Source: Bugula neritina (Eukaryota > Animalia > Bryozoa). From it: DNA of 64,000 nt. The translations under genes and the position numbers were made by a program. Shown piece after piece: positions 3,028-64,000 of this stretch. The notes under the pieces are model-generated. The model was not told the origin of the DNA. It searched no databases and saw only the letters and a list, made by a program, of their open reading frames with translations. The stretch covers positions 12,967,675 through 13,031,674 of the forward strand of contig OZ037768.1 of assembly GCA_964035545.1 (NCBI GenBank), written 5' to 3'. Each line of letters begins with the position of its first letter. Position 1 is the first letter of the stretch.

Positions 3028-3028
3028 C

Positions 3029-8800: not shown

Positions 8801-10452
8801 GCAGGAGTCAAGAGAGTGATCTTCAAACTACGACTCCGGTGGTATTGGCCACAAATGAAGCGGGACGTCCGACTCAGAGTCAAGCAGTGCGAAATCTGCC
8901 AGGCCAGTAAGCATGGCCGTTTCCCTGGTGAAGCCGGACAGCGGAGGCTATATGCTGGCAGGCCCTGGCAAGTGGTAGCTGTTGACCTGGTCGGACCCAT
9001 GCCCCTGACCCCCAGAGGCAATAGTTGGATATTAGTATTGACAGACCACATTACTATGTGGGCAGACGCTCTGGCTATCCCAGATGCGTCAGCCCCAAAA
9101 GTGGCCAGGGCGCTAGACCAACATGTATTCTGTTATTTCGGGCTTCCCGAACAGATACACTCTGATCAAGGCACGCAGTTTCAGTCCCAACTGATGAGCG
9201 ACCTTTGCCGCCTCTAGAGAGTAAATCAGAGCAGGACGACTCCCTATCACCCCCAAGGTAACGGGGTGGTGGAGCGCAATAACCGGATGCTAGGTGATGC
9301 GCTCCGAAGTCTCCTCCTTGGACGCGGTCAAGAGGAATGGGACACGGTGTTGCCGCAAATCATGCGTGCATACCGTAGCACCCCACACACCAGTACTGGT
9401 GAGACCTCAAACCTCTTGATGCTCGGGAGAGAGACTCGTATCCCTGACCATCTTACCTACCACGTTCCAGAGCAAGACAACTCGGTTCACGAGTATGCCA
9501 GTGAACTAGTGGAACGGATGAAGGTCGCACACGATATACTGCGCGAACAGCAGTGGAAGGTGCGACACGAAGATTCCAAGGAACCACCCCTATACCAGAC
9601 GGGAGATAAGGTGTGAATGGTCAATTACCGTAGGCGTCGCGGACAAGCAGCTAAGCTACAGCCTAAGTTCGTGGGACCCTACGTGATCGTCGAGGCGATG
9701 CCCAACCATACGTACCAGATCGAGCGCTCAGGACAGGTGTCTTTTCAGAATGAGTCTCGCTTGAAGCCGTATTGGGCTAGCCCTGACACAGCGGGAGAAG
9801 CCCCCCCCCCGTTGTTGGAGCCTAGAAGGCAGACAACAACGCGTCGGCGACGGCGGCAGGGACTTGAATATGAAGTCGTCATACCGCGGGAGGAAGACTT
9901 GGTGAGAGATGAGCGATCGCTTTTACCAACAGAAGCGCGCCCGCCACCGCCAAATCTAATTCCATCACTTCCAGAAACCGAGCCGGTTCCGGAAGTGCAA
10001 AACCCCATCGAGGGAGGGGTTCTATCCGGAGAACAAGAAGAAGTGACCACCAACGGTGAAGTAGAGACGCCACCAGAGGCCCCTACTAATAAACCGGCGA
10101 GCGTGTCACCCCCCTAGAACGGGGACAACGTACGAGGAAACCCCCACCATATTTAAAAGACTTCGTATGTGACTGCATTAAAAACGGCACGCATGAAAGT
10201 CTAGGGGAAAACCGTACGAGAAAATGTTAGAGTTGCAAGCCCCACGCAAATATCAACTTTTGCGAGGGCGGAGTAGTGGGAGGAATTAATGCGCATAAAG
10301 CAAATAGTTCCGACCTCGTGTCACAGAAACAATGCCCAGCCTTTTCTTACGCTGACATCGCCAAGGGCAGACGTACCTCACAACTAGCTCCAACCTTACC
10401 ACGAACATTGAGTATGGACACTAATACCGAGTTCACAGGTAAGCCAGTATAA
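5825..10452 (+). pseudogene. pol: Pol of B1 (PR, RT, RNase H, IN), disrupted
   Basis: WRFCVDYRKLN, YLDD, DTDTSD, DLVGP, SDQG, PQGNGVVER, KFVGPY; stops at 8288, 9215 and 9614, plus frameshifts near 6130, 7475 and 10115. Confidence 0.95.
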
Positions 10453-11551
10453 GTCTTGTATTCCTATCTATGGAAACAGGCCCGATGCCAGTAAATGCTG
10501 AGCTAATCCATCAGATTGAATCAGAATTACTGGGGACCACGTTTCACGCGAATGACGACGAGGACACAGTAATGGCCGACGGTCTGTTAGACCTGGAGCT
10601 AGACACTGTTCTTGATCAGTCCACACGTGATTCACTGGTCTCTCGAGTGCTTTCTAAAAGTTGTGACTCTCAGACTAGTAACAGTCGACAGCCATCAGAA
10701 TTATGTTGTAAAGATCCACCGCGATCTAACAACAATTCTACCTTTGTAGACGCACTCGCTCCCGTCTCTCCGGGCATGCCTTCCCTAGAGATGGCGTAGG
10801 ACCCAGAGCCGGCCTCACCAACTTCCACAACTAGACAACTGCCACAACAGCTAGAAGTAACCTCCAGCTGGACAACCCCCGCCACGGAGACGGAGATTAA
10901 GAAACATAGAGGGGATGACAGTAACCGGGAGTGCCGCCTATGTCAACAGCGGTTTACAACACACCGCAGATTGAGAGTCCACTTGCCGCAGCATTTTATT
11001 ACAACGTTCTGCCCCTGCGGGGAGTATAGTTACAACCGTGACTACGTGCTGCGTCACCAATGCACCATGCACTGCTTTCAGGGCCACGTGTACGACGTGG
11101 ATAAATCTTCCTACTCAGCATTCCTCGAAGTTATCCGACCCCTCATCACAAACTCAGCTCGGCTATCTCGCCTGGAGCAAGGCTTTCCCTCCCCCCGACC
11201 CATCATCTCTGAACCAACGGATAAACCTTCGAAATCATCTAACTCCCCACCTCTCAGTTCCGTGCGGCGACCCCAGACACTCCCCCGTGTCGTATTACAG
11301 AGGGTTGACACGCAGACATACACACTTCCTCCCCCACTCCCATCCGCAGAACGGAAAAGACACCGACAGCAGCAGATATTCTCCTCTCTCATCCCCTCCG
11401 GCCCGCAACCTACGAGAGGTCGAGACTAGGGCAAATGAACTCGAACAAGAGGTGTATAGACTAGCCCCCCCCCAGTATTCATGCAGCATCCAGTGAGCTC
11501 CGGTCACTACAGGAGTCCATCAGATGGATGAAACGAGCAGCCCAGGATTAA
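10414..11551 (+). pseudogene. ORF3 of B1: zinc-finger/coiled-coil protein, disrupted
   Basis: ATG at 10414 (MDTNTEFT) then G|GTAAG donor; CRLC-x12-HLPQH and FCPCG-type second finger; C-terminal LREVETRANELEQEVYRLAP; premature TAG at 10797 and downstream frameshifts. Confidence 0.75.
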
Positions 11552-11800: not shown

Positions 11801-11831
11801 CAGAAAGAGGGCTTTCTGCTGGTGGGGGCGG
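11801..11831 (+). promoter_or_regulatory. Hairpin plus polypurine tract before the 3' LTR
   Basis: CAGAAAG-AGGG-CTTTCTG-CTGGTGGGGGCGG; also at 19258-19288, 30611-30642, 41664-41694, 55172-55203 and 63552-63583. Confidence 0.85.
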
Positions 11832-12446
11832 TGTGGTGGCTCGTGGAGCTACCAACAGCACAATACGCAGGGTCGCGTATTGACCCGGAACAATGTACTC
11901 AGCCAATTAGCGAAGCTGCTAGTGAGTAGCAGTAGTTAGCTTCGCGCTACTAGTCAGTTGTGAATAGTGTGATAAATTAAATAGACGCGTAGATTTCTGG
12001 ATATTCTGTACCGTTTTTATTATGTATCTTATACTCAAAATATACTCTTATTAACTCGATCTATCCTGGTGAAGTTCTCTGGCAAGTAAATAGACTCTCT
12101 TGATTACACATCAACCCTAATTCTGAAAAATACAACACTATCACTAATTATAGGAATTACAAGAGTTTCTCTTTAGCAATATTCCAAAACATCCCATCTA
12201 GCTGGCTAGTGATATTCAAGCTGATACTTTAAGTATAAGACAGAGAGTTGTAACACTCAGCTCTCTGATGACTCTATTCCTCCAGAAAAGGTTTGCTACT
12301 TCCAGACATCTCTTTATGTATATCTACTTTGTTGAACTTATGTTCACATTGATGTTGTAAAAACTTCTACTTGCATTTGTTGTTCTGTTTTCTTCAGTGA
12401 AAGTTCCCAAGACAAGAGGAGCAGCAAATCGTCATGCACACAAAAA

Positions 12447-12992
12447 AGTCGACATAACAGGTTATGACGAAGCCAAGACTTGTGAACATGTTGGCACATT
12501 CTTCTTAAATCATGTGACCAGTAAGAACGTCCCAGCTCCGGTTCACACCAAAACTAAGACTCAGGAGTTTTGAGAGCTACACCTAAAACTATTGAAACTA
12601 CAGAGAAAGACATACACAACATTTTTAAACAGCATGGTTTAAGAATCGCAATTAAGGCAAATAAAAGAGCAGTAACTTCTTTTAGATATTTACCTCAATC
12701 TCACAAACCAAATATACAAACCATACAACAAACCAAACAACATTCTCACATACCTGTATGCAAAAGCAAATCATTCACTATAGATTCTCCAAAACAAATC
12801 AGAATCTATAAACAGACGACTCTCATCCATCTCGTTTAATTCTGCTACATTCAGCAACAATGCAATCACCTATCAAGAATCACTCTTCAAAAGCGAACAC
12901 AATCACAAACTAGAATTTTATAAACCTAGAGCAAGCCCCAAGGAGCCGAATCGTTATTATAAGAGGAAAATAACATGTTTCAACCCCCCCCC
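12447..12992 (+). mobile_element. Penelope-like retroelement RT fragment (decayed)
   Basis: Frameshifted translation gives GYDEAKTCEHVG, IFKQHGLRIAI, FLDIYLNL..YKPYNKPNN, INRRLSSIS, YQESL and KITCFNPP, typical PLE RT/thumb motifs. Confidence 0.8.
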
Positions 12993-15900
12993 ACGCTCCC
13001 CCCTCCCCCTTTCTTTCAGTAGAAACATAGTGAACAACATGAGCAAGATTGTTTGTGATAAGTTCCCTGCATAATGCTGCATAAAAGCCATAATCTATCA
13101 AACAAAGGTCAACAATAATAGCAATGCAGCAACAGAAACATATCTGGTTCATTTTACTTAATCTAGTACACACTGAAAATCTCCAGTTTTTAGCTATTTT
13201 TTATAATTTAGCTGCTAATGAACATGGGTTTTTGCCCAAAACTAGTAAAATATAAATGAATGCACACCTAAATAGTTAAGGTTCTTCTTAATTTTGCTTG
13301 ATTTCCCATGTTTTTTTCTAATTATTCAGCTCCTTTTCATTTTGGAGAGTTTTTTTTTCATAACACTCTGCAAAAAATGTTTCTATATCAAGACTTTGTG
13401 CTGATTCTGAATTTGCAAACTCTAAAATTGTAGATCTACCCATGCTAGAGTTATTGAGTAAAACAAGTATAAATTATGAGCACATAATATTGTAGCCTAC
13501 AATATACGTAGCATCAATTATTAACTATAGCTGTCTATAAACAATAATATTTTGTCGGATATGAAAGTAGATTGCTTCGTTTTTAAATTCTACACGGAAT
13601 ATAAATTTATAGATTGCAAAACACTATATTTTTTCTTATTCAAAATGAAGTTTTCAATAGAAATGCATGTCCGCTATATAATATGATCATGACACATAAT
13701 AACATTTGACAGAAGCATTTGTAATAATTATATAAAAGAAGCTAGTTATGTAAGATAGAAAGTATTTTATGTGAACGAGTCAAAGAATTAAATATTTAAA
13801 AGCAATATCATGGATGCATACATGTTGAAATCTTTTTAGCATCTTTTAACTCAGTCTTCTGTTGATTTGACAGTAATCTTTAAATGTAATATCTGCAATT
13901 AAGGAAGGAGATAATAGCAAAGCTTAGAGTTTTTCCTTTGAAAATATTATAGCTGAGCCAAACAAATTTTAACTTCCAAGTGATAATTAAAATAAATACT
14001 ACAAAGAGTATGCATTTTAACCAAGAACATTGTTTTGAAAATACTGTTTATATAATATATTGTTCAATTTAAGTCTGTTGGTAAATGTCAACGAACACAT
14101 AACAAAACTAGCCACTAAGATTACTTGTTTTATTGGTTTAGTTTGACAAATACAACGTTTTGCCGTTATGTTTTTGGATACAATTTCACTAAATAGATTG
14201 ACATTATACGTTATACACAAATAATATTATACAACTACTTTCTTTGAGGAAGCAACTCCCAAGTTTCCTTACAAATGCTCATATGCTGGTTGCTACCAAC
14301 ACGCTTAGAGGATCCTATATTATGTATCAAGTCAAGATGTGTCAAGCAGAGAGTTTTTAATAATTCAAATGACTTTTGTCAAAGTAACAAGGTAATTAAC
14401 GTTTGACAACTTAAACAACACAGACAAATTAATTCTAATAACTTCTTGTTAGAAAAAGTATGCTAATAGTTTTTAAAACTTTCTGTCACTAATGGCTGTT
14501 TGGCAAGTTTCTATAATAATCATATTTATTCATTACTGGTTTGTGGTAAAATGTATAATCAGTGTGGTTGACTATGCATATCAACATTACATGCACCAGG
14601 GATCTATGTGGAATACTTAATCAACAACAAAGTATGTTTTGGTGTAAACTTTATATGTGTGTATTGAAGGAGAAAAATAACTTTACCCCCAAAAATATTG
14701 GCACAGAATATCACACACTAAATTGCTGCAATATAACATACAAGTGTAATTACACAAAATCGCTTGCGATAGACAAATATAGGTTGTATGTTGGAGCAAG
14801 CAGTATACACTCAACAAGTATTTAGAAATAAACATTAGGTAGGCACGTGAAAATAATTTTAAATTAGGATGCTTTAGTAATTTCACGCTAGTCGGTAGTC
14901 TAATATAGTTTTAAAGCTCCTGACGTTGAAGAATAAAAATCAAAATAACAACATGATGGCTGGAAAAAGCATTGAAGTCTAAAGCATTGAATAAAGCACA
15001 CTTCATTTTAAATAACAAAAGCTAGTTCGAGAGCCAAGAACTTATTCTTTTCCAATGCAACATAATAAATATTTATATATAGCAGTTAATGATAATAATG
15101 TCTTTTATATAGTTTTCTGTAGTTTTTATATAATAGTTTTTCAAATTTCAGAAGGCAGAAGTATTTTCCCTTTCGCTTTTGAGACCAAAGCAAAGTGTTT
15201 ATACACCTTTGATGTTACAATTCTTGTGAATTTCATTTCTTCTATTCTGTCCAAAGTCTCAAAGCCTAAAAAACACATAATACTAGATTTATTAGATTTA
15301 TCCTGCATAATTATTTTTTTTGTGATGCTTTGATAAAATTCAACAACTTAGTATTTCGATCTAAGTAAAAAAGAAATAAAATAAAAAACAAAACTATAAA
15401 ACAGAAATTTTTTTACAGGTTGTCAGTAACTCAAAATTAGCAAAATCATAGATTAAGGACCAAGGTTACTTGCCATAGAGGCTCTCATTTTCTGTTTGTA
15501 GCGCATCATTGGTCAACTGTTTATGTTCCTGCCATGTTACACCATCATCACTTGCAATGACAATGGTTTCCTGTTCATCTTGACTAGCAGCAACATCTAT
15601 TATGACAGGGCTAAAAAGGAAAAACACAGGTGCAATTTTTAGAAAACAGTTATACTTTTTACATGTACTGTGTTTGAATAAAGATGTAATAAATTTTAAT
15701 GAAAACATGAAAAAGTAATAAAAATGGGAAAAAAATTGATTTCTTTCCTACAAAACTAAATGAATGAAAGCTTACCCAATAAAGGTGGCACAAGCAGGTT
15801 CTAGAGAGAGAATGGGGAAGATGAGTGTTTCGCCCTTTGGAAGAGAGGGCATCACTCCTTTCTCAAGGAGACGGCACACAATTCTCGTAGGTCCGGTTGC

Positions 15901-16589
15901 CACACCGGCTGGAATAAAAATCGGACTTTCTCTCGGCATCCTTGGAAAAGTCCTCCTCTGACGTCTACCAGAAAACTGATGCGGAATCTAAAGTGAGAAG
16001 CATATAATATGTCAACACAGTTAATAATTAAGTAGCTAGTAATTCATTTATGTGTGCATGTGTGCGTGTGTGCGTGTGTGCGTGTGGGTGTGTGTTGTTA
16101 TTGCAGTAGCAGTTTTCCTACATATAAAAATGCTTCTACTTCAACTATTAAAACAAACCCAATAAAACTGAAGTAATGTTTGGCAACAGTTTTAACTGCA
16201 ACAATTCTTCCAAGTCAGTTATCATTACCTTTTCAATTTGAGCTTCTCACTACAAATAAAAAAGAAAAAACTGATTTTATATAACAAATTTACAAAATGT
16301 CTTCCGTAAACCGCTTTTGAACTACATACAGCCAAAGAATGAGAAACATGCTCATTGCATTTCTTGTCTACATAATATATAGAAAAAATATGTCAAATTT
16401 GTTCATATATAGTTGGGTACATATACTAAACGTACTTAGTATTTCTAAGGTTTTCATTTTTCAATGAATTGTCAGAGTTTAGATCCTTCTGAGAATGAGG
16501 TGCGCTGTGGGCCTCCTTACAAGTCTTTCTCTTTTTCGGTGTAAAGACACTCTTGCAGTTCAAACCTAAAATGAATAGAATACATTACT

Positions 16590-16676
16590 AGTGTGTGTGC
16601 GTGTGTGCGTGTGTGCGTGCGTGCGTGCGTGTGTGCGTGTGTGCGTGTGTGCGTGTGTGCGTGTGTGCGTGTGTGT

Positions 16677-16770
<94 letters not shown>
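16590..16770. repeat. (GT)n/(GCGT)n microsatellite
   Basis: Directly visible; explains the HT/VC low-complexity ORFs. Confidence 0.97.
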
Positions 16771-16773
<3 letters not shown>

Positions 16774-16833
16774 AGTCTGTGCATGTGCAGGTACGTAAGG
16801 AATTGATACTGTATCAATTATGAATATTGACTG

Positions 16834-16836
<3 letters not shown>

Positions 16837-16924
<88 letters not shown>

Positions 16925-16948
16925 TATATATATGAATATATATATATA
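16837..16948. repeat. (TA)n microsatellite
   Basis: Directly visible. Confidence 0.97.
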
Positions 16949-19524
16949 TTTACATGTTTTAAGAGTAAAAATATTGCTGGTAATTAACTAGGCCTCTAAC
17001 TATGCGTTCGTGAAATAAAATTAGCTGTGGGTTTTACCATTATGCATAGCTATAAATTAATAATAATCAATTCGAAAAATTCCCAACAATTTAATACTGC
17101 AAATAATTGCCAGTATGAAAAACAGTAATTGGTAAGTTTTTATTACCAGCAGAGGCGATGCTACGTAAAGCTCGCCTGACTTTCGATGTACGAGGTTTTG
17201 TCTTAACGCTCTGCATGCCATACACCTACAAGGAAACTATTGCATTGCTATTGTACAATCACACTAAATATACGTTTTCATGGATAGACACTTTAATAGG
17301 CGTTTATAATATACACGCAATAATGATATAATGTACTGCAAACACACTAACTCAATTCTCCTAATGCTGTGACCAACTTACCAAGTGAACAGTGCCTAAC
17401 TACAGAACCAGTAACTATAAAAGGGCTTAAATAAACAGAATAATTGAAAAGTTATTATCCTTTTGGAAGTTACATTGATTTACATAAAGTTACCGTCTTG
17501 TATATCTCAATGCTTAGCGAAACATGACCGATTTCTAGTAAATTACTCCAAATATTTTAAAGCTCTATCTAAGTTCAGTTGGTATCTGTAACTTTCATTG
17601 ATGTTATATTTACCAGATAGCTGACTCAATGAATCAATAATTGACCAAAAACAAAATTGACAAGCATTGGAAAAACGCTTATATCAAAATGAGTAAAAAT
17701 GATGCACTTTTAGCTCGTGACTTAGCAGTAGACTGTGATCCAGATAAACACTAGACAGAGCCAGATTGACTACTGATTTCCTCACATGTGCAATCAGCTT
17801 GTGAGACAAAGTTTAGAAATGGTTTGATCAACTCATTGACTAATGACCCAGAAGATATTGTAGCAATGTTTTGCTGACACAAAATTAAATGTCAGACTAA
17901 GTCACTGTGAACACAAGCATAACACGCGTAATGAAATATGTTTAGTCCAGAAAAACTTACAACATTGAATACTACAATGTTTCGATGCTAATATCAAACT
18001 GTAGATGATTTATTAACAGATAATGTAAGGGCAATTTCTACTTCTGCTTCATGTTTTGACAGAGATTTTACCATATTTACCTGACCACTATGTCTGTCAC
18101 CATACTTCAAGAGAATTTCTGCTGTGAAAGCATGGTTTGTCTGCCTGCACAGGTGCATTGGGGTTAATCCGTCCTAAAATATACCATAGCAGTAGCAACT
18201 CAATCAAATATTCAATATTCAATACTCAAATAATATTTAATACGAAAAGCTTTCAATTTTATGTTTTCCACTTCATGATAAGGGTCATAGTTCATGATAA
18301 TAATCAGTTGGTATAACAGTTGCAGTTGTAACATTAATGGCACAGTCTGTGTTGTCACATAATTCTGGTAACTTGGAGTTATCTTTTTTTATATTTGTAG
18401 TTTCTCAACTTATGAGCTGAGTTAAAATAAAAGTTAACTTCCTCTTTGACAGATTCAGGACTTTGATTTATATCATTTATAAATAGAAACTAATTAACTA
18501 TTAATCACTTATAAAATAGATATCTGCTGAATAAAAAAGTAATGAAAGTTAGAATAAAGAAACTTAGAACAGCAAATGTTGAGATAGTATGCTGCCGCAC
18601 TGGCAGTTGATCACAAAAAGTAACTGTAACATCGCTAACTGTTCGGAATTGTAAGCTTACTTTGGTATAGCAGTTGGGACTAGCACCATTTTCCAACAGC
18701 ATCGATACAATATCACTGAGTCCATCCTTAGCCGCAATATGTAGCGGGGTGTACCCATCTTCCGACTCTGTGCTTACTCCTGCGCCATACTCAATCAGAG
18801 CACAGACGATATCCATGTCACCATGTTCCACAGCATAATGTAGAGGCGTGTAGCCATTCTGTAAACACAATTACCAGTAGCCATTTAGTAGACTTTATGA
18901 CTCATCAGAGATTAGAATAAAGAATATAATTACCAAGATGAAAGCATTATTGTTATGATTTCCAGAATTAGGGTTGATATGCTATCCAGAGAGTCTATTT
19001 ACTTGCTATAGAACTGCACCAGGATAAGTCGAGTGAACGAGTATATATTTTACACACAATAATACATTATAAAAACGATACAAATACATCTGACAATTGA
19101 CACATCTAGTCTATTCAGCACTCTAACTTCGACTGAGTTAGCAGCCGGAAACTATACTTGCTGCTAACTATTAAACACGCTAATTGGCTATCCATTGTTC
19201 CGGGTCAATTACGCGACCCTACATGTTGTGCTGCTAGTAGCTCCACGAGCCACCACACCGCCCCCACCAGCAGAAAGCCCTCTTTCTAATATAAAAAAAC
19301 GTTCATCATTAACCACATACATCAGTAGACCAAAGATACATAATAACAGACAGAGTCATTATAACAGCAAGTTACATACAATTGACCAGCTATAGAGGAG
19401 GAATACCGGCTAGCTGTGGTATTGGACAAGGAGTAGGCCTGTCGAGCAGTCAAGCATTTACACGACATTCTTGGGTCTCCCAAGAGGAAGAAGTTGTGGA
19501 TTATTCCGGGTAGCAGAACTAGAG

Positions 19525-20597
19525 TCAATGTTGGGCACGCCGGTGCTTGGCTTGGCATGTACGTAGTTTCCGTTTAATCCGGCCTACTGATCCCTTTAGT
19601 TGGAAGAGCCCCGTCGTAGTATTGAGCAGATCCGGTGCTAACTGGGTAAATTCTTCTTGTAGTCGGAGGAGGCGTTCCTCTACTGTGGCCAGGCGAGTGG
19701 GGTCTGGGGACGGTGTCCGTCTGCGGCGCAGAGGGGGACTGGGAGACCTGGTTCGTCTCTTCATCGGGATAGGGGAGACCTCTCCTTCTTCTGGATAGGC
19801 AAACTCCTCGGGGGTGTACGCAATCTGAGGGCGGTCAGACACCAATGGGGATTGTTGCCTGGCATAGTCTAATACGCGTTGGAAACCCGAGGTCAGGACG
19901 GCTAACAACATTGCCTTCTTTACTAGGGGCCGTATCAGAGTGAGGAATTCCGGATAGAGCTGGGCATCCACCACGTAATTCTCTCCAGAGAAACAGCTTG
20001 TCGCTCGATGTCTGGTGACGGGGTAGGGGTAGACATCATTGTATCCGCAGGGGCAGAATGTGAGTTGGAGATGGGCGTTGACATGTAGCTTCAAGGAGCG
20101 GTGAGAGGCACATTCTTCGCCACAAATCTGGCATCGCGTCCGTCCTCTGGACCCCCAGGCCGTTTCTATTTCCTCCTCTGTTTTTGGAGACACCCACCGC
20201 CAACGGCGGCGCAGTGGCTCGGGTCGGTCACCATTGGCATACTCCTCAGGATGCGGAGCGGGAAGTGCCCTATCCCGTACCCTGGTTGTAGCGGGTCGAG
20301 TGTAATCTGAAAAAGTTTGAGCAGTGTTAATACAGTACACTGCCGTGTTGTCAGCTTGAATAGCTTGGCAACTTCGCATTCAGTTACCTTGTAGAGATTT
20401 ATGGTAGTGAATAGTCAGATAGAACACGTATTGCAATGAGATTATAAAAATCTCTAAGTCAAACTGAGTTCTTACTACGGTATTTCACTAACCTATCTCC
20501 AGCTCGATTGACTCAGTGAGTCGGAGCTGAGCGATGCAATCTAGTTTCCATATTAAGATATAGTTAACTCACCCCACGATCTGTTGTCGTAAGACAT
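19525..20597 (-). CDS. ORF3 of C: spliced zinc-finger/coiled-coil protein (predicted 268 aa)
   Basis: Exon 1 20597-20573 (MSYDNRSW G|GTGAGT), 266-nt intron, acceptor TTTTTCAG|AT at 20306; CQIC-x12-HVNAH and CPC-x12-H-x4-C; coiled-coil tail; frame open. Confidence 0.75.
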
Positions 20598-20621
20598 ACT
20601 GAATGTGTGAAATGGTTTGAA

Positions 20622-23600
20622 CTACTGCTTAGAAATACGTCTACTCCTGACTGCATCAGCGTATGATAGGATCGAGCAACGTGGTTGGGGTGCGTGATTA
20701 AGACTTTGTGCACCCGGCGGATGAATTTTGTTTCTATTTCCGCCGATACAAAAGTTGATATTTTCGTGGTGTTGACAACTCCCACATTTGCTCGATACTT
20801 TTCTCGTACGGTTTTCCCCTAGACTTTCATACGCGCCGCTTCTAACGCAGTCGCATACGAAGTCCTTCAAGTATGCGGGGGGTTGCCTCGTACGCTGCCC
20901 CCTTTCTAGGGGGGGTGACACGCTCGCCGGTTCGTTAGTAGGGGCCTCTAATGGCGCCTCTACTTCACCGTTAGCGGTCACCTCTTCTTGTTCTCCGGAT
21001 GGAGCCCCTCCCTCCGTGGGGGTGTGCACTTCCGGAACCGGCTCGGTTTCTGGAAGTGATGGAATTAGACTTGGCGGTGGCGGACACGCTTCCGTTGGCA
21101 AAAGCTGTCGCTCCTCTTTCACCAAGTTTTCTTCCCGCGATATGACCACTTCATATTCAGGTCCATGCCGCCGTTGCCCGCGTGTTGTTGTCTGCCTCCT
21201 GGGCTCCAACAACGGGGGGGGGGGCTTCTCCCACCGCGTCGGGGCTAGCCCAATATGGTTTCAAGCGAGACTCATTCTGGATAGACACCTGTCCTGAGCG
21301 CTCAATCTTGTACGTATGATAGGGCATAGCCTCGACGACCACGTAGGGTCCTACGAACTTAGGCTTTAGTTTGTCAGCCTGTCCGCGACGCCTACGGTAA
21401 TTGACCATCCACACTTTATCTCCCGTTTGGTAGAGAGGTGGTTCATCGGAATCTTCGTGCCGCACCTTCCACTGCTGTTCGCGCAGTATATCGTGTGCGG
21501 CCTTCATCCGTTCCACTAGTTCACTGGCAAACTCGTGAACCGAGTTGTCTTGCTCTGGAACGTGGTAGGTAAGATGGTCAGGGACACGAGTCTCTCTCCC
21601 GAGCATCAAGAGGTTTGGGGTCTCACCAGTACGGGTGTGTGGGGTGCTACGGTATGCACGCATGACTTGCGGCAACACCGTATCCCATTCCTCTTGGCCT
21701 CGTCCGAGGAGGAGACTCCGGAGCGCATCACCTAGCATCCGGTTGTTGCGCTCCACCACCCCGTTACCTTGAGGGTGGTAGGGGGTGGTCCGGCTCTGAT
21801 TTACTCCCCAGAGGTGGCAAAGGTCGCTCATCAGTTGAGACTGGAATTGAGCGCCTTGATCAGAGTGTATCTGTTCGGGGAGACCAAAATAACAGAATAC
21901 ATGTTGGTCTAGTGCCCTGGCCACTGTTGGGGCTAGCCAGAGCATCCGCCCACCTAGTAAAGTGGTCGGTTAGTACTAAGATCCAACTATTGCCTCTGGG
22001 GGTCAGGGGCATGGGTCCGACCAGGTCTACAGCGACTGCTCGCCAGGGCCTTCCAGCATATAGCCTCCGCCGTCCCGCTTCACCAGAGGGACGGCTATGC
22101 TTACTGGCCTGGCAGATCTCACACTGTTTGACTCTGAGTCGGACGTCACGCTCCATTTGTGGCCAATACCACCGGAATCGTAATTTGGACATCACTCTCT
22201 TGACCCCTGCGTGGGCCTGTTTGTGAGTATCCCAAATCAACTCACGGCGGATGGCAGTGGGGCAGACTACCCTCTTCCTCTCTGGGTGTCTGCCGCTGGC
22301 GGCTAGAGAGATGGTTAGTAACCCATCCTGCCCGATCCGCAGCGAGTCCCAACGCTGACAGTATAGCCGGAACTCGGCGCATCCCTGTCGTATGCGTTCC
22401 TCGCTGGGTCGTCGCCCTTCGCTTTTGGCCCGATATATGTCTGTCACGACTCCAGGCAGCTCTCCTTGGAGCTTCTTCAGCTCTCGGACATTATCGGCCA
22501 GTACAGGGTTGGCGCGGAGGTTTTGTACAACCTCCGGGGACTCATCAACTTCCTGTCTGAGTTGACCCTGGTCCCAGTCAAACGGTGCTCCGTGGTGAGC
22601 CAGCGTCTCCAACTTGCATCGCGGGGGACCTCCATCCCTCCTCTCGATGTTGAGACACTGTTTGCAACCTCCGTCAGGTCGGCGACTCAACCCATCCACA
22701 TTGCTGTGTCTCTTGCCCGGTCGATGTTCGATCCGGTATGAGAATTCAGCTAGGATTTCGAGCCACCGGGCGACCTGACTAGAGGGCTCTGCTCTCTTGC
22801 ACAACCAGATCAGCGAGGCATGATCCGTACGCAGCCGAAACTTCCTGCCATATAGGTATGGTCTGAAGTGCTTCACTGACTTGATTACTGCCAGCAGCTC
22901 CTTGCGGGTAGTGCAGTAATTTCGTTCAGCGAGTGAGAGACTTGCTGTAGTAGGCTACTACTACCTCTCGGCCTTCCTGCACTTGTGACAGCACAGCGCC
23001 AACATTTTGGTCACTGGCGTCAGTGTCGAGGATGTACTCCAGAGTGGGGTCTGGGTAGGCCAAGATGGGCGCCGTTAGTAGGCAGCCCTTGAGGCGGTCG
23101 AACGCTCCTTGTTCGACTGGGGTCCACTGCCACGTCACTCCCTTTGCGGTGAGCCGGTTTAACGGCTGTGCTATGCCCGCAAAGTCTGGTATGTATTGTC
23201 TGTAATACCCTACCAGCCCCAAAAAAGCCTGGAGTCCGGTCAAGTCTTGGGGGGTGACCCAGTCTTCTATTGCCCGTACCTTCTTGGGATCCGTTGCCAC
23301 GCCGTTTCGACCGACAACGTGCCCCAGGTACTTAACCTCTGGCTGCAATAGAGCGCACTTAGAAGGTTTGAGCTTGAGACCGGCACCTCGGAGTCTCTCA
23401 AAGACTTCCTGCAGACGACTGACATGTGTCTCGAAGTCTGGGGAGATCACGATGACATCATCGAGGTAGATCAGCAGTGTCTTCCAATGGAGCCCGCTGA
23501 GGACTTGCTCCATCAGCCTCCGGAAGATGGCTGGGGCGGAGGTCAACCCGAAAGGCAACACCTTCCACTTCCACAAACCGTCCCGTGTGATAAACGCCGC

Positions 23601-25158
23601 CTTCTCCTGGGCGTCGGGACTCAGAGGGACTTGCCAATAGCCACTCAGCAAGTCTAACGTACTGAAGTACTTTCTGCCGGCTAGGGCGTCCAACGACTCC
23701 TCATTACGAGGTAGAGGGTAGGCGTCCTGTATGGTTACGCTATTGAGTTTGCGGTAATCCACACAGAACCGCCAACTGCCGTCTTTCTTCCGGACCAGTA
23801 CGACCGGCGAGCTCCACGCACTATGGGCGGGCTCTATCAGTCCCCGGTCCAGAAGATCCCGTACTTGTCGGCTAACCTCCTTCTCTTTCTCCGGCCCCAG
23901 CCTGCGCGTGGGCTGCCGGACAGGGACTGTCCCTGCAGTCAGCGATATTTCGTGTCTGACAATTCCAGTCAGTCCCACGTCATGATCTCCGCTGCTGAAC
24001 ACATCACCGTAGTTGCGTAGTAACTTCGCCATAACTTGGCGTTCTTTGTTACTCGCGCAGCCGCTACAGGCTGTGTCATACAACTCCCGGAGATGTGCTG
24101 GGACTGTCCCTCGCCCTTGAGTAGGGCACTGAGGGAGTGCCTCCGTCGCATCACCCAGCGACGGGCCTACGTCTTCCTCCTGAACAGAGTGAAAACGGCC
24201 CAGCATCGACCCAGCCGGAAGCTTGACAGACTCGGTAAAGGGGTTGACGCACTGCACTAAGATCTCCCCTTGCTCAGTCAGCTGATTCAGACTGCTGGCA
24301 AGTTGGATCTTTTCCTCCAGAGATCCGGCTATTGTTCACCCTGCAGTGAATGGTAGCCCGAGAGCGGCCTGGTATGGTACGGTTGCGTACCACTTACACA
24401 CCTCCCACTAAAAGACGGCCGAACTTGTCGACGCAGGCGAGTTCTCGCCCGGACATCATCATCGCAGATTTACTAAAATCGATGTGACATCCGTGCCGTT
24501 TTAGGAATGGCATCCCGAGGATGGCGTCCTCCTTGAGCTGACTGACGATGAACGTCTCTTGGATCGTTTGATCACGGACTCGTCCCGTCAGCTCAATTAT
24601 ACCATAGAAGGGAAGGCACGACCCGTCAGCTAGGGTGCCATACTCCCCCTCGTATGATTCCATCTCGCCCTTGACCCTAGCACTGAGGGTGTCGAAGAGT
24701 TGGCGGCTTAAGAGGTTCGTGGTACAGCCCGAATCAATGAGGAAAGTAACAGCCTTGCCTTCCAGTTTACCGGGTAAGAAATAGCTGTTCCTATGGGGCT
24801 GCACCTGAACTCTCCCTTCAGGCCTTACTCTCGCAGGGAGTACCTCCCTCGCTTTGGGTCGCGAAGGAGGTCTCTTGGGGCGGTGGTAAGTAGGCCTCGG
24901 GGGTGCCGAGGCTAGATTCCCGGCTACCTTTGTGGGCTCCCATCCAGATTCTTGGGCTTGTAGCCCTGTGAACCTGTTGTGAAGGGGCACGGAAAAGGTA
25001 GCGGCGGGGCGGAGCCCCTTGCTGGTCCGTCGTGGCTGTTGCCACGGTTGGTTACCAGTACGCGGTACCCGTCTGGGTGACCTGCGTTTCTTCTTCCCTG
25101 GAGGTTTCATCGTTGGCCCGCAGGAGGTGGGAACATCTGCGGGCCGCGGTAGTTTAAC
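20622..25158 (-). pseudogene. pol: Pol of C (PR, RT, RNase H, IN), disrupted
   Basis: LIDSGCTT, YLDD, DTDASD, DLVGP, SDQG, KFVGPY; stop at 24394 and frameshifts near 22930, 21930 and 21220. Confidence 0.95.
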
Positions 25159-26060
25159 CCCTGATTTAGGAAGGGACAGTATCTGCGGAAATGTCCTTGA
25201 TTTCCGCATTCCCAGCAAAAACTGACTGTTTCTCCCTGTGGCGGCGCCGGTGGCCGTACGGGCTCAGTGGCAGTACCTACTGGGGTTTGGGGTGTCAGTG
25301 TTGCTATCAGTTTGGCCAGCATGTCTGTCAGTTGAGTGACTTTCGATGCCGTCGCCAGCTGAGACACGGCAGCCGCAGCGGGGGTTTCCTCCCCTTGTCC
25401 CACGGCCGTGTCTGCGCGGTCTACCTCCACTTGACGGGAGCTCCCGCGACTTTTATGCATTTGATTAGCTAGGAGGTAAGCTTCCCCCTCAGTCAGAGCA
25501 CCTTCAACGGTGGTGACTCCCCTAGCTAAAAACTGGTGGTGGAGACCCAAATCGTCGACAGATGCTATGAAAGCGTCGAGGGTATACCTCTCGCGGTTGA
25601 CTGGGGGCAAGTCGCTGTATGCGATCTGTGCCAGCTTCATGACCGCGGCGGCGTGCTCCCGCAGCGGGGTGCGGGGATCACGCCGCAACCTCTGCAATCG
25701 GGCCCTGGCATCTGTAGCAGAGAGGCCGAAGCGGGCCCGCAGAGAAGCAAAGATATTATCAATGTCTACGCCCAGCCCATAAGGCTTGGCTTTGTCCATC
25801 AATGCCATTCTAAGCTTCAGCAGGGCCACCCTAGGGAGCCACTGGGCGACGTCCATTACGTCGCTAAACTCTTGGATAAATTGTTCCACCTCCTCTTCGC
25901 CCGTGAAGGTGGGCGCCTTTAACCGGTAGCGGTCTTCAGTTAGTTCTCGCGGAACCCTTCGCTCTTCTACTACATGGTTAACAGGCATTGTCTCTACAGC
26001 ATTGTCTCTACGCTCACCTTCTACTGCCGGTGGTTGCGTTCCAACATTTTCAGTCTCCAT
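25107..26060 (-). CDS. gag: Gag of C, with CCHC knuckle
   Basis: 317 aa; CWECGNQGHFRRYC. Confidence 0.92.
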   Translation of the reverse strand: METENVGTQPPAVEGERRDNAVETMPVNHVVEERRVPRELTEDRYRLKAPTFTGEEEVEQFIQEFSDVMDVAQWLPRVALLKLRMALMDKAKPYGLGVDIDNIFASLRARFGLSATDARARLQRLRRDPRTPLREHAAAVMKLAQIAYSDLPPVNRERYTLDAFIASVDDLGLHHQFLARGVTTVEGALTEGEAYLLANQMHKSRGSSRQVEVDRADTAVGQGEETPAAAAVSQLATASKVTQLTDMLAKLIATLTPQTPVGTATEPVRPPAPPQGETVSFCWECGNQGHFRRYCPFLNQGLNYRGPQMFPPPAGQR

Positions 26061-28434
26061 CTTGGATGCACTATCCCACCGCTGCCACCACTGTTATGAT
26101 TTCCAGAATTAGGGTTGATATGCTATCCAGAGAGTCTATTTACTTGCTATAGAACTGCACCAGGATAAGTCGAGTGAATGAGTATATATTTTACACACAA
26201 TAATACATTATAAAAAAGATACAAATACATCTGACAATTTACACATCTAGTCTATTCAGCACTCTAACTTCGACTGAGTTAGCAGCGGGAAACTATAATT
26301 GCTGCTAACTATTAAACACGCTAATTGGCTATCCATTGTTCCGGGTCAATTACGCGACCCTACATGTTGTGCTGCTGGTAGCTCCACGAGCCACCACATT
26401 ATTACTAACATTATAGTGAGTGTTCCTAGATTCGAGAAAATATGACAATTCCACTTCTAGGTTATGTAGTTCAACAGTAAGCAGAACATTAACATGGCCA
26501 TTTACAATGTAGGTAATTTTTAATCATAAAAAGTAATGAAGCTAACATACATTGATCAAACTGACTCCAAAATGTTCATAATTTTGCTGAGCTATCTCAA
26601 GTTTAGCAGAATAATTCTCACCTTAGCCCTGCTGCCAGGGGAGACACCATATTTCTCCAGCAGAAGTAAGACTATTGCAGCTTGACCATGCTGAGCAGCT
26701 AGGTGCAGAGCTGTATGTCCATCATCATTTTTGAGTTCAGGCTTTGCACCTTTTTTTAGTAACATCCTAGTTACTGCCTGTTGATTGTTTTCAATGCTGA
26801 CATGGAGAGGCGTCAATCCATTCTACAAGCACCAGCATGCACTGTGTCTACATGTAACTCAAAATACTTCAGGAGAAAATTATACATCAGAAGTGAATTT
26901 CAGAAGAACATTTATTACCAGTCCTAATCAACATACACAATTATTTGTTTTTCTCAAGTGGAGGCACTGAATACACTAAATTGTTACCTTAGTCACAGAA
27001 TGGAATAGTTTTGAATGTTTTGGAAATGAACTTATCACATGTTCATTCCCCTCTTTTGCTGCTACATGCAGCAGGGAATAGTTATCTCTAACCTCAGCAT
27101 TCACATCAAATTCATGCTGCAACAGAAGCAGTACACTCTCTACACTACTCACTACTTCAACTCTTGTTGTTACATAATAAACAAACACTATTTGTATAGC
27201 TATACAGGTTCCTTAAAGCAAAGCACCATTTCTGAAATAGTCAAATAGGAACTTCAAGTCTTCTCAATTTAAAACTAAATGTAAAAGTGAAAATCATTGC
27301 AGTGTAGTTCTACAGTTACTCCAAACTCTTTAAGTTTAGAATGTGCTTACTGAAGATGGGTCTTCATTGTCCAGAGAAGAGGGTGTATGTAGTTGACTAC
27401 TACTGATCTCACTGTGATCAATAGATAGTTCCTCACTGTCAACCTCTATTTCAGATTCACTAGCTCGGCAACATACTAAAAGTGACAATACTGTCATGTA
27501 TAAACTCAGATATATTCATTTTACAATCTGATTCAAGGAACACTATGTGACTTGAATACCACTTCAAAATATCAAACACACCATTAGCCGATCTTCTAAT
27601 TTCATGCCTAGATCTTTACTAAATTTACTGTACCCTTTCGCCCAAAACAAAATAGTAGGTCACAAACTAATACTGTGATTTTGGTTCATCTTCATCCAAT
27701 GGGATTATATTCTGAAGATTGATGGGGATTTTACTGTGTGCAAACATTTGAAAGAAAATATTTGAACTTCTGCCAGATTGGCTATAATGATGGCAAGATG
27801 ATATGGTCAATTTTCCAAATAGTGATGCAGGCAGCTTTAATTAGCCAAGCTGAAAAGGATATGACAAACATTCATATGATGCAGTCACTATAAGAGTGTA
27901 CATACATGTAACTCATCAATATATTTATATTGGTACAAAATCAGCTAACCCTAAGTGACAAAGATATAAAATATTGTAGTTAGACAAGTTTGCAAATTAT
28001 TTAGCTTTTCATGTAAAACTTACCCAAATTGGTAATGGAGGCCCGAAAGCTTCTGAATAATTCTAATATCATTTTCGCAGTATAAGCATATTAACACTCA
28101 ACATAATATTAGGACAATAATGTTTTTAATAAAAATGTAGACTAATAATTATGATGTAAACAGTTTTTGTTGTGGGTAGTATTATGATTGTGATGTCATA
28201 CAACAATGGTATCCCAATTTAAATTTAGCAAATATTTAAATTTACTATTACACTAACTTCAATATCTGATTATTAGGACTTATAAGCAGCAATTGCAGGT
28301 TCTCCATATTTTACAAAGTTGTAAATAAATTGTTTTAAAAATAGTTTTTAATATATAAGTTAAGTAGCTGCAGGCCAATTGGCTCTAAGTGAATGCATTT
28401 TGAATAACTTTTTCACTGCAGGTTTTTAAAGTCT

Positions 28435-28450
28435 AATATATATATATATA

Positions 28451-28486
<36 letters not shown>

Positions 28487-28487
28487 A
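28435..28487. repeat. (TA)n microsatellite
   Basis: Directly visible. Confidence 0.9.
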
Positions 28488-30887: not shown

Positions 30888-31913
30888 CTATTTTTGCAGG
30901 GACTGGATCCGGTGTCGTGCCTGCCGTGCACGTAGCCTACGCTTTAGGCGTCCTACTGAGCCCTTCAATTCACTAAGACCCATTGTAGTACTGAGTAAGT
31001 CGGGGGCCAACTGGGTGAATTCATCCTGCAGCCGCAGGAGTCTTTCTTCGACGGTTGCTAGTCGGGTAGGCCTGGTTGGGGTTGACGTCGCTTCTTTTGG
31101 AGAGTCTGATGCTTCCATGGGGGTATTGTCTAGCCGCGGTATGATTGCAGCGACCGTTTTCACCATAGGGGACTTCTGACGGGCGGCTGTTAGCAATGTA
31201 TAAAATCCGGAGGATAATGCGGCCCAGGTTAAAGCCTTCTCAACCACTGGTTTGACCGCTTCTAGGTATTGGTCGTAGTTGTCCGCGTCTACTACATAGC
31301 CCTCGCCCGCGAAACAGTCCATCATGTGAGCCAGGACAGGGTATGGGTACACGTCGTGAAATCTACACGGACAGAAACGTAGCAGAAAGTGTGCATTCAC
31401 ATGCAGCCGTAGTCCTTGGTGTGAGGGAAGCTCTTCGTAACACACATGGCAGGTATGTTGTGACCTACTCGGTCCCAAGGCTTCTTCAATTTGCGGCTCC
31501 GTTCGTCGCGACACCCATCTGTGTCTTCGACGCAGCACCGCGGGCAGTCCGTTGTCCGTTTCTGGTCCGTTATCCAAGGAGGAGAGAGAGTGTAGATCCT
31601 GTGACCTGTTGGTCGATCGAGTGTGATCTGCAAGAGTATAACAGTGTAAGAGGGTACACTGAGTACAACCGGCGTATACAGCCTGGTGGGTACTTAACTC
31701 AATTAGACACTCGTGAGACTCAGTTAATGAATAGTTGATGGAAAACACACACTGCTGTAACGGACTGTTCAGTCTTAGAGTCAATGTGAAGTCTCACCAC
31801 TAAAAATTATTACCGAGTCTCCAGCTTACTCTATTATAGTTAAGCTGATTAATACAGTTTAGCCCTCGTACCAAAAACATAACTAACTCACCTCTCAATT
31901 CCTGGCAAGCCAT
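30888..31913 (-). CDS. ORF3 of A2: spliced zinc-finger/coiled-coil protein (predicted 253 aa)
   Basis: Exon 1 31913-31892 (MACQELR G|GTGAGT), 264-nt intron, acceptor CTCTTGCAG|AT at 31627; CHVC-x12-HVNAH and CPC-x12-H-x3-C; PTRLATVEERLLRLQ shared with C. Confidence 0.75.
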
Positions 31914-39900: not shown

Positions 39901-41529
39901 AACTACGACTCCGGTGGTATTGGCCACAAATGAAGCGGGACGTCCGACTCAGAGTCAAGCAGTGCGAAATCTGCCAGGCCAGTAAGCATGGCCGTCTCCC
40001 TGGTGAAGCCGGACAGCGGAGGCTATATGCTGGCAGGCCCTGGCAAGTGGTAGCTGTTGACCTGGTCGGACCCATGCCCCTGACCCCCAGAGGCAATAGT
40101 TGGATATTAGTATTGACAGACCACATTACTATGTGGGCAGACGCTCTGGCTATCCCAGATGCGTCAGCCCCAAAAGTGGCCAGGGCGCTAGACCAACATG
40201 TATTCTGTTATTTCGGGCTTCCCGAACAGATACACTCTGATCAAGGCACGCAGTTTCAGTCCCAACTGATGAGCGACCTTTGCCGCCTCTAGAGAGTAAA
40301 TCAGAGCAGGACGACTCCCTATCACCCCCAAGGTAACGGGGTGGTGGAGCGCAATAACCGGATGCTAGGTGATGCGCTCCGAAGTCTCCTCCTTGGACGC
40401 GGTCAAGAGGAATGGGACACGGTGTTGCCGCAAATCATGCGTGCATACCGTAGCACCCCACACACCAGTACTGGTGAGACCTCAAACCTCTTGATGCTCG
40501 GGAGAGAGACTCGTATCCCTGACCATCTTACCTACCACGTTCCAGAGCAAGACAACTCGGTTCACGAGTATGCCAGTGAACTAGTGGAACGGATGAAGGT
40601 CGCACACGATATACTGCGCGAACAGCAGTGGAAGGTGCGACACGAAGATTTCAAGGAACCACCCCTATACCAGACGGGAGATAAGGTGTGAATGGTCAAT
40701 TACCGTAGGCGTCGCGGACAAGCAGCTAAGCTACAGCCTAAGTTCGTGGGACCCTACGTGATCGTCGAGGCGATGCGCAACCATACGTACCAGATCGAGC
40801 GCTCAGGACAGGTGTCTTTTCAGAATGAGTCTCGCTTGAAGCCGTATTGGGCTAGCCCTGACACAGCGGGAGAAGCCCCCCCCCCCCGTTGTTGGAGCCT
40901 AGAAGGCAGACAACAACGCGTCGGCGACGGCGGCAGGGACTTGAATATGAAGTCGTCATACCGCGGGAGGAAGACTTGGTGAGAGATGAGCGATCGCTTT
41001 TACCAACAGAAGCGCGCCCGCCACCGCCAAATCTAATTCCATCACTTCCAGAAACCGAGCCGGTTCCGGAAGTGCAAAACCCCATCGAGGGAGGGGTTCT
41101 ATCCGGAGAACAAGAAGAAGTGACCACCAACGGTGAAGTAGAGACGCCACCAGAGGCCCCTACTAATAAACCGGCGAGCGTGTCACCCCCCTAGAACGGG
41201 GACAACGTACGAGGAAACCCCCACCATATTTAAAAGACTTCGTATGTGACTGCATTAAAAACGGCACGCATGAAAGTCTAGGGGAAAACCGTACGAGAAA
41301 ATGTTGGAGTTGCAAGCCCCACGCAAATATCAACTTTTGCGAGGGCGGAGTAGTGGGAGGAATTAATGCGCATAAAGCAAATAGTTCCGACCTCGTGCCA
41401 CAGAAACGATGCCCAGCCTTTTCTTACGCTGACATCGCCAAGGGCAGACGTACCTCACAACTAGCTCCAACCTTACCACGAACATTGAGTATGGACACTA
41501 ATACCGAGTTCACAGGTAAGCCAGTATAA
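36901..41529 (+). pseudogene. pol: Pol of B2, disrupted
   Basis: Same motifs and the same stops as B1 (39363, 40290, 40689). Confidence 0.95.
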
Positions 41530-42309
41530 GTCTTGTATTCCTATCTATGGAAACAGGCCCGATGCCAGTAAATTCTGAGCTAATCCATCAGATTGAATCA
41601 GAATTACTGGGGACCGTTTAGTCCACTGATGTACGTGTTACTTGTGAATTATATTTTTTATATCAGAAAGAGGGCTTTCTGCTGGTGGGGGCGGTGTGGT
41701 GGCTCGTGGAGCTACCAACAGCACAATACGCAGGGTCGCGTATTGACCCGGAACAATGTACTCAGCCAATTAGCGAAGCTGCTAGTGAGTAGCAGTAGTT
41801 AGCTTCGCGCTACTAGTCAGTTGTGAATAGTGTGATAAATTAAATAGACGCGTAGATTTCTGGATATTCTGTACCGTTTTTATTATGTATCTTATACTCA
41901 AAATATACTCTTATTAACTCGATCTATCCTGGTGAAGTTCTCTGGCAAGTAAATAGACTCTCTTGATTACACATCAACCCTAATTCTGAAAAATACAACA
42001 CTATCACTAATTATAGGAATTACAAGAGTTTCTCTTTAGCAATATTCCAAAACATCCCATCTAGCTGGCTGGTGATATTCAAGCTGATACTTTAAGTATA
42101 AGACAGAGAGTTGTAACACTCAGCTCTCTGATGACTCTATTCTTCCAGAAAAGGTTTGCTACTTCCAGACATCTCTTTATGTATATCTACTTTGTTGAAC
42201 TTATGTTCACATTGATGTTGTAAAAACTTCTACTTGCATTTGTTGTTCTGTTTTCTTCAGTGAAAGTTCCCAAGACAAGAGGAGCAGCAAATCGTCATGC
42301 ACACAAAAA

Positions 42310-63208: not shown

Positions 63209-64000
63209 TGTTGTGAGTTTTAGCACAATTATCAAGCGTGGATTGCCTGCGTATTTAGTTTCAATTTAACTAGCAACTACTAACAGAGCTTGCGTACGAT
63301 AACCTTTATTTAATTCGATAAACATAATTATAACAGTATGTCAAAACCACAATACATCAATCAATTATAACACGTCTTACTACTACGAGCCCCTGCTCTC
63401 AACACACATGGTTTCTGCTAGCTAACCCGCGAACAGTCACTTGACCGGAACCTTGCCTTCCGGTCCTTCTGATTGGATAGTAAAACATAGTTATAAGTAT
63501 TCCCATACAGGAGGGGACGAATCCATTATTATGCTACGTAATCCCATTACACCGCCCCCACCAGCAGAAAGACCTACTTTCTGATAAAAACAAAAATAGT
63601 ATAATAATGCAAAAATAACATAAGTCAAGAAAATCCACAAAGAGAAAGAAAAGAAATATCAAACGTACGACATATGTGATATACAAGTAAGATAACGAAT
63701 GGCCAGCGTACAACTGGCCAGCTATAAAGAGAGAGTCCTGGATCGTAGGTCATTAGTAGTCGAGCATTTACACGATCACAACAAAGTATCCTGGGAACAT
63801 GCGGGGTGGAATTGGCAACTGCCAGCTCCTATTTTTGCGGGGACTGGATCCGGTGTCGTGCCTGCCGTGCACGTAGCCTACGCTTTAGGCGTCCTACTGA
63901 GCCCTTCAATTCACTAAGACCCATTGTAGTACTGAGTAAGTCGGGTGCCAACTGGGTGAATTCATCCTGCAGCCGCAGGAGTTTTTCTTCGACGGTTGCT
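63209..64000 (-). mobile_element. Family A copy A3, 3' end (3' LTR 63209-63551, PPT, ORF3 C-terminus ~63829-64000)
   Basis: Same flank and CTAT as A2; near-identical to 30268-31059. Confidence 0.95.

Follow-up and report, generated by a model that had tools for sequence, protein, structure and literature searches.

The common view is that LTR retrotransposons of animals can do with gag and pol, and with env where they infect. In the literature covered here, CERV, encoded by the Ty3/Gypsy element Cer1 of C. elegans and required for export of unspliced Cer1 RNA, is the one accessory protein other than Env for which a regulatory function has been demonstrated (PMC10309623). In the parts of that report that were covered, CERV is described as the product of a spliced ORF in the env position that shares its N-terminus with Gag, contains a Cys-rich region and a coiled coil, and lies in frame in the polyprotein; the 517-aa protein is encoded by 5 exons, has a G-protein-like domain and a C4-type loop, and reportedly lacks homologues outside nematodes (PMC10309623). 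A selected nuclear accessory protein, sORF1, is described for the 412/MDG1 group of Drosophila, an env-less group of Metaviridae (PMC11952523), and chromoviruses carry a chromodomain at the C-terminus of integrase (PMC2774666). Additional ORFs of plant elements (PMC7264820) and multi-domain Burro elements (PMC6431247) are further known neighbours and, in the portions covered, do not correspond to the protein described below. The covered portions of PMC8220671 and PMC2774666 likewise present other extra ORFs or domains and not this one, and a survey of polychaete LTR elements mentions none of ORF, zinc, envelope and PBS (PMC8556966).

The window analysed here, a stretch of 64,000 nucleotides from Bugula neritina, contains Ty3/Gypsy elements with a third ORF (ORF3), an accessory regulatory-type ORF of an LTR retrotransposon built on a zinc-finger domain that is absent from Pfam. 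The initial annotation had recognised no described family in it, and no description of the protein was found in the literature, the scope of which was mostly non-subscription articles; supplements, Repbase, Dfam and GyDB lay outside that scope and may describe such elements. ORF3 is a second candidate accessory regulator next to CERV, apparently unrelated to it and much more widespread (345 representatives, reaching bryozoans). Three points set out below go beyond the earlier annotation: the route through the gag donor, the form fused to Pol and the precedent of CERV.

ORF3 in the Gypsy elements of the window

The window is composed of AT-rich, animal-type DNA with microsatellites and of several GC-rich elements, which belong to Ty3/Gypsy (Metaviridae) by their LTRs with TG..CA ends, target duplication, primer-binding site (PBS), PPT and gag-PR-RT-RH-IN order. 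Element C, with the layout LTR-gag-pol-ORF3-LTR (18951..26398, minus strand, 7.4 kb), has a 4-bp target duplication and LTRs that are 98% identical, and Pfam detects PR, RT, RNase H, IN zinc, rve and SH3 in Gypsy order, preceded by gag, though its pol is broken by frameshifts. Its PBS is of the tRNA-Leu type (26073..26090, minus strand), no tRNA gene was found within the window, and a matching 5′ motif is described as complementary to Leu-tRNA in cestode elements, in the part of that report covered (PMC4558846). A PPT-like tract common to elements A, B and C lies at 19258..19290 (minus strand) in element C. Element A (30268-34153, minus strand, 3.9 kb) lacks RT, RH and the IN core and has further copies at both ends of the window, while element B is present as B1 (4672-12137, plus strand, 7.5 kb) and as a second copy, B2 (35748-42000, plus strand), and element D occupies about 56500-62990 on the minus strand. 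Since C, A and B all have 4-bp target duplications and LTR pairs that are 98-100% identical, their insertions are young, the frameshifted pol of C notwithstanding.

According to the initial annotation, three families have homologous sense ORFs located between integrase and the PPT, and such an ORF was indeed found in the env position, between the integrase tail and the PPT, of C, A and B, although the B copy is broken and that of B2 is deleted. In element C, ORF3 is an open frame of 284 aa from stop to stop (19525-20379, minus strand), of which 19525..20306 forms the main exon; upstream of it lie a predicted intron of 266 nt (20307..20572), which is non-coding, folds into hairpins and is conserved between C and A, and an ATG mini-exon (20573..20597) that follows the pol stop and ends in a phase-1 consensus donor. 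Element A has the same arrangement on the minus strand (30888..31913), with a mini-exon at 31892-31913, a predicted intron at 31628-31891 and an open main exon at 30888-31627, and its open frame (30888-31793) encodes 301 aa. The ORF3 of B1 (10414..11551, plus strand) has a donor after 10438, where the pol frame ends, and its own ATG at 10470, and is broken twice, first by a stop (10797-10799) and then by a change of frame at around 11385-11400. Coordinates 20597, 31913 and 10414, originally read as ORF3 starts, mark ATG mini-exons ending in consensus donors. Only the start of ORF3 is retained in B2 (41488..41615, plus strand), the remainder being deleted up to the 3′ UTR, and the 3′ end of ORF3 in a third A copy (63829..64000, minus strand) is cut by the end of the window. 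In element D, neither ORF3 profile gave a match and no gag donor was found, but its 3′ LTR was not found either, so that D is no clean negative.

Pairwise identity to the ORF3 of C is 51% for A and 33% for B, the encoded proteins are about 230-365 aa long in the window's families, and profile E-values within the window, down to 1e-102, are beyond chance. The view that the three families have different LTRs or Gags needs to be corrected for B and C, whose LTRs are 78% and whose pol genes are 88% identical (DNA), whereas the ORF3 of C is A-like. ORF3 type is therefore not tied to LTR type.

The Env-encoding ORF3 of errantiviruses and retroviruses shares its position and, as predicted here, its env-like splice design with the ORF3 of the window, but the latter encodes zinc fingers and a basic tail. 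In agreement with the initial annotation, it is not Env: no membrane segment and no Env Pfam family was detected, nor a signal peptide as judged by eye. The highest 19-residue hydropathy is 1.51 in C, 0.99 in A and 0.55 in B, with no membrane-length hydrophobic stretch, and a value of 1.6 is reached by 10 of the 105 relatives of at least 200 aa.

Architecture and relatives of the ORF3 protein

The previously noted motifs are all present, namely W-x4-TE-x-[EQ]I, the C-x2-C-x12-H-x3-H finger, a second, FCPC-x12-H finger, the VD..Y block, a Pro/Ser/Arg linker and a long C-terminal helix. The second finger varies in its last His-to-Cys spacing, which is x4 in C, x3 in A and x5 in B, and among distant relatives a fourth ligand falls within 3-5 residues in only 36 of 63 motifs. 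The AlphaFold model of the whole C frame comprises an ordered core and a helix of 55 residues, with a disordered linker between them; the core alone (residues 48-180, 54 sequences) was modelled as one domain of ~130 aa with a pLDDT of 90.4 and a pTM of 0.83. This compact two-zinc-finger domain (19840..20238, minus strand) has conserved C/H/W/F columns and comprises a C2H2 finger (finger 1, about 20071-20133) and a CxC-x12-H-x4-C finger (about 19993-20055), with helices flanking the pair. It is followed by the Pro/Ser/Arg linker (19696..19839, pLDDT <60), which contains basic clusters and S/T-P sites and whose DNA is unconserved between C and A (z -0.2), and by a long amphipathic helix with a basic end that is a predicted coiled coil (19531..19695, model residues 229-283, pLDDT >90).

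A linker of constant length, five residues, connects the two fingers in every one of the 156 motifs counted, and no TGEKP-type linker was seen; with one C2H2 finger and one CxC finger, the protein differs from Krüppel-type C2H2 arrays. Most members have S/T at position -1 of finger 1, R/K at +2, R at +5 and a hydrophobic residue at +6, while position +3 is R in B-type and distant members and A/S in the A/C type. This conservation across very distant elements suggests a conserved target rather than family-specific reading of DNA. The N-terminus of B-type proteins is acidic (net -7 to -11 over the first 60 aa in the 3 checked), a property that A/C-type proteins lack, and a MADxLLxL motif is conserved in 28 of 67 B-type proteins. 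Reading this motif as an NES was not adopted, as its last position is L in 20 of the 28 and the A/C types do not have it; no clear NES was found in the ORF3 of C or A.

Searches of Pfam returned no family above cut-off for either the ORFs of the window or 54 aligned members, for which the best match was to a generic coiled coil (E 0.0009); of 40 distant relatives, a single protein, with two domains, narrowly exceeds the cut-off of the generic zf-C2H2_4. At E <= 0.001, Foldseek gave no match for the whole model (PDB, BFVD) or for the core (PDB), and the C-terminal helix had only generic coiled-coil structure matches. With VIA, the best Z for the core was 3.7, and the finger pair matched Kaiso (Z 3.6, rmsd 2.9 over 57) and SALL4 (Z 3.4). 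For a distant member, the nearest entries of the ESM Atlas were finger pairs of STOP1/WIP/IDD and ASCIZ (ATMIN), all below the Atlas bar, the others being unnamed clusters and generic C2H2 rows. These weak structural look-alikes share a C2H2 finger directly followed by a CxC-type finger, but they match only the finger pair of ~55 residues, score under the bar of the respective tool and leave the N-terminal Trp-helix and the C-terminal helices unmatched. No whole-domain match to the ORF3 core was found in the PDB, an absence that is no proof of a new fold.

Word searches yielded 58 matches among 1696 candidates for the C type and 67 among 243 for the B type, all unnamed, with many of the B-type matches being 355-366 aa long with an acidic N-terminus. 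A profile of 35 sequences, run over 1.84 billion representatives (50% clustering), found 345 at E <= 0.001 and 162 at E <= 1e-10; the full double-finger spacing is matched by 61 of the 133 new proteins listed, and, as judged by eye, a Pro/Ser/Arg linker with a long helix after it forms the C-terminal part of most profile matches. Named members occurred in 4 of the 20 distant clusters looked up and are all bryozoan, from Watersipora subatra (XP_067944745.1, XP_067940963/4.1) and Bugula neritina (KAF6040922.1, KAF6040923.1). The genomic context of the database relatives is that given by their protein sequences alone. Scans of metagenome contigs gave 60 pattern matches with the A2 alignment, 0 of them confirmed, and 0 with the PPT motif, and scans of viral contigs gave 3 matches with the A2 alignment and 6 with RT, 0 confirmed in either case.

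One relative, P0293 (1634 aa), contains in a single frame RT, RH, IN, a GPY/F-type SH3 tail, ~480 low-complexity residues, the finger domain (profile E 1e-18), an Arg/Pro-rich linker and a helix, and is 66% identical to element C in RT and 61% in the IN core. Three more proteins, P0292, P0252 and P0165, have an IN-tail motif in frame ahead of the domain, and two longer relatives of P0252 emerged from a search. In an unrooted tree (midpoint root, modest support) of 67 domains from 66 proteins picked from motif carriers, the window's families lie far from the Pol-fused group and the bryozoan genes fall in three places. Because members linked to Gypsy Pol occur on two widely separated branches, the domain does not derive from a single recent capture of a host gene, one of the outcomes that the initial annotation had named as refuting it. 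The Pol-fused form and its placement in the tree indicate that the module is an old part of this Pol lineage. Being present at the end of Pol in some elements and as a gene of its own, predicted to be spliced, in others, it illustrates how accessory genes can separate from a polyprotein or join one.

Selection, splice sites and possible roles of ORF3

ORF3 is under purifying selection, as evidenced by a synonymous excess among copy differences. Between run X2 and the ORF3 of C, 26 of 33 in-frame differences are synonymous, against 0.35 expected for transitions (p 2.7e-7); the 33 are those falling in the ORF3 frame among the best-supported 40 of 95 differences, a subset that mixes fixed and copy-level changes. 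Between C and A, pN/pS is 0.38 for ORF3 and 0.37 for gag, and the C-terminal helix is 81% identical with a pN/pS of 0.14, only pN/pS being quoted as dS is saturated between families. The earlier claim of a selected protein is thereby borne out. In being a selected accessory gene of env-less Metaviridae, ORF3 resembles 412 sORF1, which differs in that it lies upstream of gag and that its ~110 aa, in which a helix-turn-helix is predicted, are encoded by a short transcript that is not spliced, according to the covered part of its description (PMC11952523).

On the sense strand of B1, C and A, AG/GTRAG or G/GTRAGT occurs only at a gag donor and at the post-integrase donor; the antisense strands carry 2-3 such sites each, so that the count alone is not low, but the sense positions recur. 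In element C, the first 14 gag codons plus one base (26018..26060, minus strand) end in a phase-1 consensus donor, which has an equivalent position in A and B. All six sense donors, like the acceptors of C (20307) and A (31628), are in phase 1; the ORF3 acceptor of B is uncertain. A corresponding junction is seen in P0029, in which 14 Gag-like N-terminal residues (10/14 identical to A Gag) lead directly into the acceptor-proximal ORF3 peptide; it is 1 of 275 proteins screened and known at the protein level only. RNA run X1 (small share, 0.06) gave one 219-nt contig inside ORF3, with 30 differences and no splice joint, and is neutral on expression and splicing. The sites themselves make it likely that ORF3 arises by splicing, with the gag codon-14 donor, the post-integrase mini-exon donor or both in use. 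The pol stop precedes the mini-exon in C and A, while in B2 the frame of the pol tail continues into the post-IN donor and the stop of pol falls within a 41-nt candidate intron. Most full-length B-type relatives start at a conserved Met just downstream, and some, to go by their protein sequence, do not have the AG of the 41-nt intron; B's route of ORF3 expression is therefore uncertain.

The intron of C and A (~265 nt) is conserved beyond shuffles (z 9.5), with gaps that are not in threes and 18 of 70 four-fold sites identical (26%), and B has no matching intron (z -0.5). It folds below shuffles (z -3.1, -2.5), which is not special because windows across element C average -2.5. Independent folds of the C and A introns share 17 exact pairs, and 44 of 79 pairs lie within 2 columns, a comparison of two sequences that cannot show covariation.

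The idea, raised in the initial annotation, that ORF3 encodes a nuclear regulator is plausible. Our preferred reading, held tentatively and at somewhat less than even confidence, is that the product is a spliced, Rev/CERV-like nuclear regulator of the element's genomic RNA. It is favoured because its layout is shared with CERV, which is required for export of unspliced Cer1 RNA: ORF3, too, is a non-env ORF that lies between pol and 3′ LTR, with in-phase consensus donors and the Gag-ORF3 junction of P0029, the one RNA run having no joint. The proteins themselves differ in architecture, that of the window consisting of a C2H2 and CxC finger domain, a linker and one helix. Of the H, M (C4 loop, ring-forming) and G-protein-like domains of CERV, no G-protein fold was detected in the fold searches, and the model has neither room nor secondary structure for a G domain.

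In such a mechanism, a spliced subgenomic RNA would join the gag codon-14 and/or mini-exon donor to the ORF3 acceptor, a step for which the recurrent sites argue fairly strongly. Its product is predicted to form a single zinc-bound domain, oligomerise through the coiled coil and enter the nucleus via its basic clusters. More speculatively, the protein may bind an RNA element kept only in unspliced RNA, for which the conserved post-integrase intron is a candidate, and might then switch the element from ORF3 production to export of gag-pol RNA, so that unspliced genomic RNA would escape splicing or retention. The Rev/CERV-like role also fits the tracking of ORF3 with its adjacent intron and not with the LTR, although ORF3 and intron are neighbours and linkage alone explains their co-variation. 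Further points in its favour are the basic face of finger 1 kept across distant elements, the missing TGEKP-type linker and the linker rich in Arg and S/T-P; those against it are that C and A have no clear NES and that the nearest structural look-alikes are DNA-binding finger pairs. In addition, env-bearing Gypsy elements splice with no known Rev, which counts against a Rev-like reading. A wider version of the proposal, which we regard as doubtful, is that these elements represent an unrecognised, widespread clade of 'complex' animal Gypsy, in which a new zinc-finger domain, as Pol tail or as spliced, Gag-led third gene, would control the export of the genome by binding a structured response element within the post-integrase intron, and that bryozoans domesticated the domain more than once. 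Export of intron-containing RNA by env-less elements, or steering of integrase, is made testable by a protein of ~250 aa and a 265-nt candidate cis element.

A dimeric zinc-finger transactivator or anti-silencing factor that binds element DNA and keeps the element transcribed is a real, if minority, possibility, with role precedents in foamy Tas and plant VANC. It would account for the resemblance of the finger pair to DNA-binding tandem fingers and for the acidic N-terminus and MADxLLxL of the B type, which are like an activation domain, and the post-IN ATG mini-exon could have an internal promoter. The A/C-type proteins, though, have no acidic N-terminus, and the structural matches are all weak. 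An LTR-specific transactivator is somewhat disfavoured because ORF3 type ignores LTR type and the recognition positions of finger 1 are nearly fixed across elements with differing LTRs.

It is unlikely, to our judgement, that the module is an integrase tether, that is, a chromatin-reading, target-choosing appendage, ancestrally Pol-fused and acting by splicing or in trans in the window's families. P0293, with module and Pol in one frame, the in-frame IN-tail motifs of its three companions and the reading of the B2 pol tail into the post-IN donor all speak for it, and the conserved basic finger face could grip nucleosomes. The extra module after integrase in P0293 recalls chromoviruses, but the zinc-finger domain is far from IN, across the ~480 low-complexity residues, and in the window it is a separate ORF with its own candidate splice sites; no chromodomain was found in Pfam scans of the IN tail, ORF3 or P0293. 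A tether is further opposed by the stop between pol and module in C and A, by a dedicated gag donor that would be superfluous, and by the B-type relatives, with their own conserved Met and, in some, no AG of the 41-nt intron. The last exon of CERV also lies within a long polyprotein ORF, yet CERV is a separate spliced protein.

Distinctly less probable still is a host-defence antagonist or other protein-binding adaptor, one that sequesters, say, a factor of the piRNA pathway or of heterochromatin, or else a nucleic-acid chaperone associated with the virion. Binding of proteins is frequent among CxC-type fingers, and the fast divergence between sister families (ORF3 33% against RT 87% identity) and the apparent module swapping fit an arms race, but amino-acid changes are not in excess within the family. 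That ORF3 is a passenger in decay, derived from one capture of a host gene, is very improbable and largely refuted, for although annotated bryozoan genes have the domain and the B copy is broken, purifying selection is comparable to that on gag, 125 close matches come from many subfamilies, Pol-linked members occur in two distant branches and the bryozoan genes in three places of the unrooted, modestly supported tree.

Further observations on the elements and relatives

The two Bugula genes have adjacent locus tags, as might be the case in a host gene family. Two copies of the domain each are present in P0276, P0169 and P0277, and the bryozoan proteins P0207, P0277 and P0278 have a further N-terminal motif in common.

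A segmental duplication of ~30 kb relates 4303-18951 to 35379-48955 and 26397-30052 to 48949-54468; element C is present in one duplication copy only, with an empty site near 48950, and element D in the other. The target duplications are ATAA (C), ATAG (A) and CTAT (B, which is ATAG on the other strand), all in AT-rich DNA, and a site preference is possible, to go by these three insertions. The A copies at 30268-34153 and 1-3371 have lost most of pol through different deletions and have an open gag, the former also keeping an open ORF3, and it is possible that they are a non-autonomous derivative. Element C looks mosaic, with a B-like LTR and pol and an A-like pol tail, intron and ORF3 (6346-10262 vs 20749-24641; 20636-20785 vs 31948-32097), which suggests that recombination may have swapped its 3′ module. 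A PPT-like tract and an A-related LTR lie at 55170-55520 (plus strand), in opposite orientation to element D, which has two other strong donors after integrase (56311, 56071).

Rfam gave 0 matches across 18900-34200. The gag-pol region of C (20281-26398) folds more stably than shuffles (z mostly -1 to -6), and the ORF3 exon (19483-20280) has a z of about 0. A GTTAAAC heptamer followed by GC-rich sequence occurs at all four gag ends (25107-25135, 32847-32875 and ~61815-61830 on the minus strand, ~5822-5832 on the plus strand) and is likely a -1 ribosomal frameshift site; just downstream in C, the folding z is -6.1.
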